From NCBI RefSeq assembly GCF_057098645.1, contig NZ_CM169472.1: 64,000 bases of DNA; one strand, 5' to 3'. The notes beneath the pieces were generated by a model. It searched no databases, was not told where the DNA came from, and saw nothing but the letters and a program-made list of their open reading frames with translations. Made by a program: the position numbers and the translations under genes. Of the stretch, positions 3,881 through 51,950 are shown piece by piece (position 1 is the stretch's first letter; every line of letters starts with the position of its first letter).

Positions 3881-6800
3881 TTACGCCTTCTCGATGTTGA
3901 CTAAGAACGCTTTATATTCCGGCGTTTGCGAGTTTGCATCACCGACATTCGGCGTCAGAGTGTTAGCGATATAACCTTTACGCGCGACACCCTCAAAGCC
4001 CCAGTGGATTGGAATACCCACCGTTTCAACCTGCTGACCATTTACATTCAGCGGTTTCAGACGACGCGTTACCACAGCCACCGCGCGGATAAAGCCACGC
4101 TTGCTTGAGACAGTGACACGATCGCCATTATTAATGCCTTTCGCCGCCGCCAGCGTTTCGCTGATTTCCACAAACTGTTCCGGCTGAGCAATTGCGTTGA
4201 GCAATGCGTGCTTGGTCCAGGTGTGGAAGTGCTCGGTCAGACGATAGGTCGTACCCACATACGGGAACTGCTCTTTTTTACCCATCCGCAGTGCGTCTTG
4301 TTCATACAGACGAACAACCGGGTTAGACACCACGTTCGGATGCAGCGGGTTAGTGCCCAGTGGCGTTTCAATCGGCTCGTAGTGTTCCGGGAACGGACCT
4401 TCCGCCATTTTGTTGATGGCAAACAGGCGTCCCATCCCTTCCGGCTGCATGATAAACGGCCCGGTTGGCGTACCCGGTGCGGCATTGCCGAAGTCAGGAA
4501 TATCGTTACCCGTCCACTTGCTGCCGTTCCACTGGATCAGCATCCGTTTCGGATCCCACGGTTTACCGTTGATATCCGCCGAAGCACGGTTGTACAGCAC
4601 GCGACGGTTGAGCGGCCACGCCCAAGCCCATCCCAGCGTATTCCCCAGACCGGACGGGTCGGAGTTATCGAGGTTAGCCATCTGGTTGCCCTGCTCTGTC
4701 CAGCTACCGGTGTAGATCCAGCAAGAAGATGCGGTTGTACCGTCATCACGCAGATGCGCAAAGCTACTCAGCAACTGACCTTTCTTCGCAATCAGCACGC
4801 CATTAGCATCATAGAGATCTTCCAGCGCATAGCCGTTGTTCTCTTTAGCTACTTCGTCAGATTGCGGTTCGTGCGGCTGCTTGTAGTTCCAGCTCATCTT
4901 CATCAGCGGTTCTACGCCTTTACCACCTTCGGCCTGGTACAGCTCGCGCAGGTGATGGTAGATACCCGCCAGAATTTCACCGTCGTTACGCGCTTCGCCC
5001 GGCGCATCCTGACCTTTCCAGTGCCACTGCAGCCAGCGACCGGAGTTAGCAATAGAACCATCTTCTTCAGCAAAGCAGGTCGAAGGCAGACGGAATACTT
5101 CAGTCTGAATAGACGCCGGATCGACATCGTTCGACTCGCCGTGGTTCTGCCAGAAGGTTGAGGTTTCAGTCACCAGCGGATCGATAACCACCATGTACTT
5201 CAGCTTGCTCAGGCAGCTCACCACTTTGTTTTTGTCCGGGAAGGACGCAACCGGGTTAAAGCCCTGGCAGAAATAACCGGTGACTTTGCCTTCATCCATC
5301 ATGTTGAAATACTTGATGACGTCGTAGGTCTGGTCCCACTTCGGCAGCCAGTCATAGCCCCAGTTGTTCTCTTTCTGCGCGGCATCGCCATAGAAAGATT
5401 TCATCAGGCTAACGAAGAACTTCGGATAGTTGCTCCAGTAGTTCACCTGACCAGCCAGCGTCGCTTTCGGCGTGTTCGCTTCCAGATACGACTGCAAATC
5501 AACCTGTTTTTCTGACGGCAGCGTCAGATAACCTGGCAGGCTGGTAGAGAGCAGACCTAAGTCAGTCAGACCCTGAATGTTGGAGTGACCACGCAATGCA
5601 TTCACGCCGCCACCGGCCATACCCATGTTACCGAGCAGCAACTGGATCATCGCCATAATACGGATGTTCTGCGCACCCACGGTGTGCTGCGTCCAGCCCA
5701 GCGCGTACAGGAAGGTGGTTGTGCGATCCGGTGCGCTGGTGGAGGCCAGCACTTCACACACTTTCAGGAAGTCGGCTTTTGGCGTACCACAGATGTTTTC
5801 AACAACGTCCGGCGTGTAGCGGGAAACGTGCGCTTTCAGCAGGTTCCACACACAGCGCGGATGAGTCAGTGTTTCATCGCGTTTCGCATAGCCGTTTTCA
5901 TCGAACTGATAGTTCCAGGACGATTTATCGTATTGCCGTTTTTCAGCGTCGTAGCCGCTGAACAGACCGTCTTCGAAAGCAAAATCATCACGCACCAGCA
6001 GGCTGGCGTTGGTGTAATGCTTAACGTATTCGGCGTTGATTTTGTCGTTTTCGATCAGGTAGCGCAAAACGCCAGACAGGAACGTAATGTCCGTACCGGA
6101 ACGAATAGGTGCGTAAATATCCGCCACAGAAGCGGTACGCGTAAAACGGGGATCGACAACGATCAAGGTTGCATCGTTGTTGTTTTTCGCTTCCATCGCC
6201 CAGCGGAAACCGACGGGATGCGCTTCAGCAGCGTTACCGCCCATTACCATTACGACGTTAGCGTTTTTGATATCCACCCAGTGGTTGGTCATCGCACCGC
6301 GACCAAATGTTGGAGCAAGACTTGCTACCGTTGGTCCGTGTCAGACGCGCGCCTGGTTGTCTACCGCCAGCATCCCGAGGGAGCGGGCAAATTTCTGGGT
6401 CAGCATCCCGGTTTCGTTGCTGGCACCGGAAGCACACAGCATACCGGTAGAAAGCCAACGGTTTACCGTTACGCCCTGCTCGTTCTTTTCAATAAAGTTA
6501 GCGTCACGGTCAGCTTTCATCAGCTTCGCAATACGGGAGAATGCTTCTTCCCAGCTAATGCGCTGCCATTTGTCAGAACCTAGCGCACGATATTCCGGGT
6601 AGCGCAGACGGTTTTCGCTGTTGACGTAATCCAGCAAACCGGCCCCTTTCGGGCACAGCGCACCACGGCTTACCGGATGATCCGGGTCACCTTCAATGTG
6701 ATAAATCGCTTCTCTGGCGTTTTTCGCGCCATCACCCAGGCTATACATCAATAGCCCGCAACCTACGGAACAGTATGTGCAGGTGTTACGGATCTCTTTA

Positions 6801-38774: not shown

Positions 38775-38809
38775 CGTACTGTCAGAGAAATCAGTGCTCT
38801 GACAGTACG
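38775..38809. terminator. Strong hairpin, 13-bp perfect stem CGTACTGTCAGAG-N9-CTCTGACAGTACG, downstream of patD
   Basis: Perfect inverted repeat 40 bp after patD stop. Confidence 0.5.
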
Positions 38810-50944: not shown

Positions 50945-50945
50945 T

Positions 50946-50970
50946 AAAAAGCGCCATCTAACGATGGCGC
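50946..50970. terminator. Bidirectional terminator hairpin GCGCCATC-N4-GATGGCGC
   Basis: Occupies the whole 34-bp gap between convergent ydcO and ydcL. Confidence 0.55.
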
Positions 50971-50978
50971 GTCTGGAA

Positions 50979-51647
50979 CTACTTTTTGTTAACGTCAAAC
51001 ATGGTGGCATCGGTCGCCATGTCATCAATAACTTGTTTAATATTTTCGAAAGCCATTGGCGTACTTTCGTTATTCAGGTCTTTACCTTCGCCCTGACGAA
51101 CGACTTTGATAACCGGTTTATTAGTCGCTGCATCAATCAGCTCACCTTCAAAATACAAGCGAGTATCCATGGTTCGGTGGCCTGTAGCCATTTGCGTCCC
51201 CGCAACCACTAATGCAACAGGAACCACTTCATAGAATTGCAGCCCTTCTTTGCTGGTATCTACACCGGTAATGGCCCCACGGAAAATCAGACTACGCGGC
51301 CCCGCGGTGGTAACCAGTGGTTTACGCTGCGCTATCGCTTCTTTCATTTCGGTGTTGGTATAGTTCAAAATTTTATCCAGAACTTTCTGCCCTACCTGGG
51401 TCGAAGGTTTTGGCACCGGATAATAAGTGATTGGGTTCCAGACGATGCTGTCATATTTGCTTTGATCAAAACTCGGGTCTACCCAACGTAAAACCGGTTT
51501 ACCTGTAGCCGAGGTTGTTTCTTTTAAATCAGAGTAATTGTTTAAAAAACCAGAATATTTATCTGGCTGGGTGATTTTAGAGGCACAACCAGACAGAGCC
51601 AACAAGCCGCATAAAGCTGCAACTTTCGCAAATGATGTGGTACGCAT
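50979..51647 (-). CDS. ydcL: Lipoprotein
   Basis: Lipobox LSGC near N-terminus. Confidence 0.85.
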   Translation of the reverse strand: MRTTSFAKVAALCGLLALSGCASKITQPDKYSGFLNNYSDLKETTSATGKPVLRWVDPSFDQSKYDSIVWNPITYYPVPKPSTQVGQKVLDKILNYTNTEMKEAIAQRKPLVTTAGPRSLIFRGAITGVDTSKEGLQFYEVVPVALVVAGTQMATGHRTMDTRLYFEGELIDAATNKPVIKVVRQGEGKDLNNESTPMAFENIKQVIDDMATDATMFDVNKK

Positions 51648-51950
51648 GAATAGTTTCCTGAGATGATTATATTACTTTTTAAGTTATAGCAAAAAGCGCC
51701 GCTTCGTGTTGTGGCAAAAAAAGTGTTGGTGAAAATAAATTTTTTTAGCCCCTTTTCAGACGACATAGTCAATGCCGCAAAAGGGGCTAAGTCAATCATC
51801 AGTAGTTAAATTTCAGTAAGTTAAGCTGCTAAAAAACTTCGACTACTGTGATTAATTTCACATCCCTTCGATAAAAAATATGCTTACCGAAAAGAAGGAC
51901 AGTAAACCATCTCAGCGTGGGGAATTTTCACCCGCTTTGTTCTTACCGGG

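Follow-up and report, generated by a model that had tools for sequence, protein, structure and literature searches.

A conserved hairpin between tehB and ydcL of Escherichia, a candidate terminal stem-loop of the tehAB 3' UTR

The tehB-ydcL spacer and its palindrome

The DNA analysed here, a stretch of 64,000 nucleotides (64 kb) that is called the window throughout, is E. coli O157-like, with near-identical genomes at 99.7% to E. coli O157:H7. Its minus strand carries, in order, tehA (53641..52541), tehB (52544..51951), a spacer of 303 nt and ydcL (51647..50979). Gene identities were taken from the open reading frames and from the RefSeq annotation of near-identical genomes, both of which agree with a preliminary description of this DNA that had named tehB and ydcL as the flanking genes. 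The spacer holds no annotated feature in MG1655 or in the other records examined, and a literature search found no paper treating it as an RNA feature. On the far side of ydcL, the window has ydcL and ydcO directly adjacent (50945-50978), without IS609; in K-12, IS609 (insQ, yncK) lies between these two genes (positions 4662-6001 of the K-12 locus, L001). The features of the spacer that are discussed below are collected in Table 1.

Table 1. Features of the tehB-ydcL spacer, in window coordinates
Feature	Position	Strand	Sequence, basis or remark
tehB stop codon	51951..51953	-	TGA; from the open reading frames
CRP consensus (putative site)	51847..51862		TGTGATTAATTTCACA, TGTGA-N6-TCACA, perfect; in the Escherichia-specific part of the spacer
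Neighbouring predicted hairpin, tehB 3' region	51794..51853	-	AAUCACAGUAGU (51853..51842) pairs with ACUACUGAUGAUU (51806..51794)
First ATTGACT heptamer	51790..51796	-	Abuts the 5' side of the stem; invariant in Escherichia
Hairpin	51745..51790	-	Sense RNA 5'-UUAGCCCCUUUU-(22 nt)-AAAAGGGGCUAA-3'
22-nt "loop"	51757..51778	-	Predicted inner helix in E. coli sense RNA
Second ATTGACT heptamer	51767..51773	-	Loop apex, inside the invariant CATTGACTAT
Tail after the stem	51732..51744	-	AAAAATTTATTTT; opens with an A-run, no U-tract
C-rich, G-poor stretch	51705..51731	-	CACCAACAC...GCCACAACAC; candidate Rho-loading sequence, also in the conserved ydcL upstream block
ydcL core promoter	51676..51691	-	Start site of Kim et al. 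2012 and conservation across genera

A repeat finder returned two inverted-repeat arms of 12 nt each, at 51745-51756 (TTAGCCCCTTTT) and 51779-51790 (AAAAGGGGCTAA), which are 100% complementary and have 22 nt between them. Perfect inverted repeats of at least 12 bp with a loop of 3-40 nt occur at three loci in the window, compared with a mean of 0.1 in first-order Markov random windows, 7% of which contain any, and the pattern AGCCCCTTTT-N10-35-AAAAGGGGCT has one match in the window and none in 100 shuffles. The palindrome is an unlikely product of chance. The preliminary description had reported a 12-bp perfect stem with a 22-nt loop at this place, and the repeat finder, the shuffles and the fold energies all bear this out. 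On the tehB strand, the hairpin starts 160 nt 3' of the tehB stop; it lies about 100 nt 5' of the ydcL ATG. The two ATTGACT heptamers listed in Table 1 are 23 nt apart and do not change across Escherichia, while positions adjacent to them vary; none of the promoter, sigma-factor and transcription-factor consensuses tried against these heptamers fits them.

Read as RNA from the minus strand, which is the sense strand for tehB, the hairpin has a predicted fold of -26.4 kcal/mol (z = -5.9 to -6.2 relative to shuffles), and the plus-strand, antisense fold is predicted at -19.3 kcal/mol (z = -3.9 relative to shuffles). In E. coli the sense fold is better than the antisense fold by about 7-9 kcal/mol, an advantage that amounts to 8.7 kcal/mol in K-12 and that comes in part from G.U pairs; in the non-coli members of Escherichia the two strands fold about equally well. 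The core of the hairpin consists of four consecutive C-G pairs and one G-C pair. In the E. coli sense RNA the nominal loop is predicted to contain an inner helix, GCGGCAU/AUGUCGU, in which 51778-51772 pair with 51766-51760 (G.U pairs included), leaving an apical loop of 5 nt and a bulge of 3 nt, and this inner helix is not retained in the non-coli species. The neighbouring predicted hairpin, with a helix of 12-13 bp, is present in most Escherichia, without covariation support. Taken as a whole, the tehB 3' region (51735-51953, minus strand, 219 nt) is predicted to form four consecutive hairpins at -69 kcal/mol (z = -5.1), the helices of which are mostly retained in Escherichia, with an RNAalifold covariation term of +1.17, that is, no bonus.

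The start site of ydcL in MG1655 is mapped 29 nt before the ATG, with the upstream sequence ...TTTTTGCTATAACTTAGAAA (Kim et al. 2012, PMC3415461, supplementary file 2). The next plus-strand entry upstream of ydcL in this list, the depth of which is low, is tehA, with none between the two (PMC3415461). In window terms the ydcL start site falls at about 51676, downstream of an extended -10-like TGcTATAAC at 51691..51683, and the published experimental site agrees with a promoter block that is conserved across Enterobacteriaceae (TTTTTGyCACAAC ... TTTGCTATAAC; window 51676-51731). Relative to this start site the hairpin occupies -69 to -114, and it therefore lies outside that ydcL mRNA. Between the -10 and the Shine-Dalgarno of ydcL, the non-Escherichia genera have a TGCATAnnTGCA palindrome, which is replaced in Escherichia by AGTAATATAATCA, containing a perfect TATAAT. 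Further upstream, the putative CRP site is the only zero-mismatch match to the consensus in the 64 kb; it is kept in four of the other Escherichia loci (L010-L013) and deleted in the fifth (L009), and neither tehB nor ydcL is listed in the text of the paper on CRP genomic SELEX.

On the other side of the stem, the tail AAAAAUUUAUUUU sets A5-7 directly against the stem, with the U-rich run UUUAUUUU beginning only 5-7 nt after it, and there is no A-tract upstream of the stem. The tail score, a U-tail measure of the d'Aubenton-Carafa type, is 0.3-1.2 here, whereas other genera reach 2.3-3.7 with their canonical terminators at the homologous site, and a promoter and terminator scan of the spacer returned no terminator and no minus-strand promoter. 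The tail, which spans about -68 to -56 relative to the start of ydcL, resembles an UP element: within it, AAAATTTATTTT (51732-51743, minus strand; about -67 to -56) matches the UP-element core AAAWWTWTTTT at 10 of 11 positions, a helical turn further upstream than such elements normally lie. In the 40 nt that follow the stem there are 10 C and 2 G (C/G = 5), and their C minus G falls in the top 5.2% of 40-nt windows. Judged by this composition, the C-rich stretch could be a Rho-loading sequence; the bias of C over G is mild, and the composition may owe nothing to Rho, because the same stretch is also the conserved promoter-upstream block of ydcL.

Two other structures in the window may be recorded here. 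A textbook bidirectional terminator lies at 2284-2318 (AAAATGGCGCC-ttttaca-GGCGCCATTTT) and served as a comparison for the tail scores, and another perfect inverted repeat, of 13 bp, lies at 38775-38809 (CACGTACTGTCAGAG-N9-CTCTGACAGTACG-like), without a U-tract after it.

Conservation in Escherichia and the same position in other genera

Eighty ydcL loci, one per species, were compared, with Escherichia represented by L009-L013. Among them the palindrome is confined to Escherichia, where four other lineages carry the hairpin. Its core, GCCCCUUUU/AAAAGGGGC (9-10 bp), is intact in all Escherichia examined, and the outer pairs and the inner helix vary. Divergence of the hairpin from the window is 0.15-0.24, compared with 0.33-0.44 at the four-fold sites of tehB and ydcL in L010, L011 and L013; in L012 the four-fold divergence is 0.21 for tehB and 0.34 for ydcL, so that the contrast with the hairpin rests there on ydcL. 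The corresponding values are 0.04-0.06 for the promoter block and 0.23-0.42 for the tehB-proximal part of the spacer. As the hairpin diverges less than four-fold sites do, it is under moderate constraint, at about half the neutral rate.

Pair counts over the eight distinct sequences of the hairpin give 86.8% of cells paired, versus at most 62.5% with slid partners. Covariation among these sequences, only eight in number, is not significant, with two pairs changed on both sides, a count equalled in 66 of 500 shuffles. The outer pair 12/56 is found as U-A, U.G and C-G across lineages, which is a path typical of RNA, and at pair 13/55 three sequences show A.C, a combination that would fit the antisense strand better. 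In Escherichia sp. MOD1-EC7003 (L009, 2323-2501), the spacer is about 175 nt long and has lost about 125 nt on its tehB side, the CRP box and the neighbouring hairpin among them, and the palindrome is kept with a register-shifted stem, GCCCCUUUUCC/GGAAAGGGGGC. One E. coli strain, FCI1 (L130, 2455-2535), has a messy tandem duplication in the 5' arm and loop, in which GCCCCTTTTTCGGCA and TTTTTCGGCATTGACTATGTC are each repeated; this could be real slippage or an assembly error, and a complete hairpin is still present on the 3' side.

Of 5426 complete E. coli genomes, 5393 contain the spacer at more than 80% coverage, and the median number of places per genome is one. A single place per genome is also what a sensitive search gives when the 71-nt hairpin is the whole query. 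A genome-wide search had been named in the preliminary description as a check on the palindrome, with occurrence elsewhere as its measure: no second genomic copy exists, and at its own locus the palindrome is strongly conserved. Searches of phage sequences gave no match to the palindrome, and the arm pattern in viral contigs picked out 28 unrelated generic hairpins. The "plasmid" matches are only five Escherichia records with the same tehB-ydcL locus, three of them chromosome-sized. A scan of 51400-52200 against Rfam gave sub-threshold hits only, the best at 23 bits against a threshold of 79, and all with E > 0.2.

Several familiar identities were considered for the palindrome and rejected. 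It is not a REP or BIME element, being single-copy across about 5,400 genomes and without the REP consensus, and MG1655 has no repeat feature between tehB and ydcL. An IS200/IS605-type subterminal hairpin was set aside after blastn-short against the IS609 ends gave only chance words of 8-12 nt, and the window has no IS609 between ydcL and ydcO. Coding is rejected as well, since an 85-aa minus-strand open reading frame across the hairpin and a 32-aa plus-strand one are broken by indels in the A-run and by start-codon changes among strains and species. Readings of the loop or flanks as sigma-E, sigma-32, sigma-54, IHF or matS-like sites, made by eye against the consensus sequences, fail on spacing or at key positions.

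Among the 55 loci from genera other than Escherichia, Citrobacter and Salmonella, 44 carry a GC hairpin with at least five U in the next 8 nt just upstream of the ydcL promoter block (a few of these 44 terminator calls are doubtful), and this terminator is present whether the gene upstream is tehB or another. None of the five Escherichia loci has such a U-tailed terminator. In Citrobacter and Salmonella (L014-L033), another strong hairpin, unlike the palindrome and U-rich in its loop (for example TCTGCGTTCAGCA-TTTTTTTG-TGCTGAGCGCAGA), stands some 85-100 nt before ydcL; an A-run and then the conserved AAATTGTGC follow it, with no U-tail. Because the terminators of other genera are found at the same position, the palindrome occupies a terminator slot.

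Readings of the hairpin

With confidence and doubt in about equal measure, we favour the reading that the tehAB 3' UTR has the palindrome as its terminal stem-loop, like those seen at Rho-dependent 3' ends. This reading builds on what the sequences and the published start site show: how the hairpin is built, that it lies on the tehB strand and outside the ydcL mRNA that begins at that site, its conservation in Escherichia and its positional equivalence to the canonical terminators of other genera. Polymerase leaving tehB would transcribe the spacer, and the sense RNA would fold into a hairpin of about -26 kcal/mol. Given the missing U-tract, release would probably not be intrinsic. Rho would load on RNA rich in C and poor in G, immediately 3' of the hairpin, and terminate diffusely, after which the 3'-to-5' exonucleases PNPase and RNase II would trim the transcript back to the hairpin. 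We infer, in other words, that tehAB transcripts reach the hairpin and end at it, with Rho involved and with exonucleolytic trimming back. The expected outcome would be a defined and protected 3' end of the tehAB mRNA, with read-through kept out of the ydcL promoter. The terminal stem-loop model gives no account of the invariant ATTGACT heptamers, and the perfect CRP site nearby is likewise left over.

Published maps of 3' ends were consulted for the locus. Among the rows listed in the Term-seq tables of Adams et al. 2021 there is no tehB or ydcL entry and none near K-12 1,502,1xx-1,502,4xx, and the expression of tehAB is low; the rows listed in the TERMITe tables likewise include no 3' end at tehB-ydcL.

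This lack of a mapped end among the rows listed would also suit a decayed terminator of little function, in which the Escherichia ancestor would have lost the U-tract, the hairpin would persist by slow decay or by hitch-hiking beside the constrained ydcL promoter, and tehAB would read through towards ydcL. The missing U-tract, the covariation that is not significant, the differences between species in the outer pairs and inner helix, and the messy duplication in the 5' arm and loop of FCI1 are all consistent with decay. However, the core of 9-10 bp is intact in every Escherichia lineage examined despite four-fold divergence of 0.33-0.44, and the hairpin as a whole diverges at about half the neutral rate. 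In addition, L009 has lost 125 nt of spacer with the hairpin precisely kept, and substitutions tend to preserve pairing (U.G, C-G and the register shift of L009). Decay is for these reasons rather unlikely.

The position shared with the canonical terminators of other genera, together with the long, GC-cored stem, would also be expected if the hairpin were a weak or non-canonical intrinsic terminator that pauses and releases polymerase without Rho, by means of the delayed UUUAUUUU run, which begins 5-7 nt after the stem, or of NusA or NusG. Intrinsic release in E. coli needs a U-tract abutting the stem. Here the first 5-7 nt after the stem are A, the tail scores stay well below those of the canonical terminators (0.3-1.2 vs 2.3-3.7), and the consensus scan finds no terminator, which makes intrinsic release unlikely. 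The preliminary description had stated that the palindrome is not placed as a terminator for either flanking gene, and the two parts of the matter come apart: its placement, 3' of tehB, on the tehB strand and in the terminator slot of other genera, is that of a terminator, and the U-tract is indeed absent.

Turning from RNA to DNA, the hairpin at -69 to -114 of the mapped ydcL start site could be a site for the regulation of ydcL, with a protein recognising the inverted repeat or the pair of ATTGACT heptamers, centred near -92. The invariance of both heptamers and of CATTGACTAT in Escherichia, along with arm cores that are both sequence-invariant, speaks for such a site, and ydcL is reported to respond to several conditions and mutants (rob, cysB, iron). 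Genomic SELEX has the spacer bound by RpoS holoenzyme, with the peak, at 1500460, over the core promoter and not at the hairpin, and arms set 22 bp apart would be unusual in a dimeric operator. In E. coli the motif is unique, at a median of one place per genome, with no sign of a regulon, and no marbox was found in the spacer at up to two mismatches. Furthermore, no other genus has the palindrome, although the ydcL promoter block is kept there and terminators occupy this place. A DNA-level site is, on this evidence, distinctly unlikely, and the suggestion in the preliminary description of a protein-binding palindrome finds little support in half-sites that are 22 bp apart and single-copy in E. 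coli, at -69 to -114 of the ydcL start.

A broader proposal joins the hairpin, the two AUUGACU motifs, the adjacent hairpin and the CRP box into an Escherichia-specific regulatory module, acting as a conditional terminator/anti-terminator or through a CRP-driven long-leader or small transcript. If this were true, carbon status or tehAB read-through would be coupled to the expression of the lipoprotein gene ydcL, and we consider it very improbable. Still less credence is given to an independent transcript, either a small RNA or a long-leader ydcL mRNA from a weak TTAACT-N18-GATGAT near the CRP box, with the hairpin as its 5'-terminal stabiliser: the TTAACT-18-GATGAT/GATAAT arrangement is conserved and would put the start at the stem base, a perfect CRP site lies 57 nt upstream and the 219-nt region folds unusually well (z = -5.1). 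Against it, the K-12 list, of low depth, gives no start between tehA and ydcL, and the promoter, which was not called by the scan, matches weakly (4/6 and 4/6 with an 18-nt spacer). CRP would be near -66, a phase that does not suit class I activation; neither an Rfam match nor a small-RNA terminator was found, and L009 keeps the hairpin without the -35 and the CRP site. The preliminary description had also offered a small structured RNA, for which an element with no Rfam match, no listed start site, no terminator of its own and no significant covariation gives little support.

Comparison with known systems

REP and BIME elements, although rejected above as an identity, resemble the hairpin in being intergenic palindromes in a 3' UTR that could block exonucleases. 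The canonical intrinsic terminator is like it in having a GC-cored hairpin after a gene, in the slot used by Enterobacter, Leclercia, Klebsiella, Raoultella, Kluyvera and others, and differs in that its U-tract abuts the stem, where the Escherichia hairpin has A5-7 first. With its stem of 12 bp and loop of 22 nt (19 bp with a bulge in E. coli), the Escherichia structure is also longer than a typical terminator-like hairpin. The hairpin of Citrobacter and Salmonella (UCUGCGUUCAGCA-U7G-UGCUGAGCGCAGA then GAAAAAAUUG) shares its position, the order of hairpin, A-rich run and promoter block, and the lack of a U-tail; its sequence is entirely unlike, the loop is a short one rich in U, and the distance from tehB is only about 50 nt. 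The single slot upstream of the ydcL block would thus illustrate terminator turnover at a fixed place, with canonical terminators in most Enterobacteriaceae and hairpins without a U-tract in Escherichia, Citrobacter and Salmonella.

The closest comparison for a terminal stem-loop of the tehAB 3' UTR is with the Rho-dependent transcripts of E. coli described by Dar and Sorek (PMC6061677), which have precise steady-state 3' ends right after stable stem-loops without U-tracts. Just downstream of such 3'-end stem-loops the usage of C over G is enriched, and PNPase and RNase II generate the ends by degrading the RNA as far as the hairpin (PMC6061677). The tehB-ydcL hairpin resembles this class in being a stable same-strand stem-loop after a gene, with no U-rich tail, no upstream A-tract and an excess of C over G downstream, and in not being a REP element. 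It differs in that the ends of that class were mapped, whereas this hairpin is known here from its sequence, and in that the C-rich stretch downstream of it doubles as a promoter-upstream block. If the favoured reading is true, the hairpin would be one more unannotated case of the stem-loops that give Rho-terminated mRNAs a defined and protected 3' end, a result that helps the annotation of the tehAB and ydcL transcription units and that opens no new question. It is best filed as an unannotated, ordinary and genus-conserved 3'-UTR stem-loop without a U-tract, which sits in a terminator slot and belongs, by its likeness to the stem-loops of Dar and Sorek, with a class that is already known.
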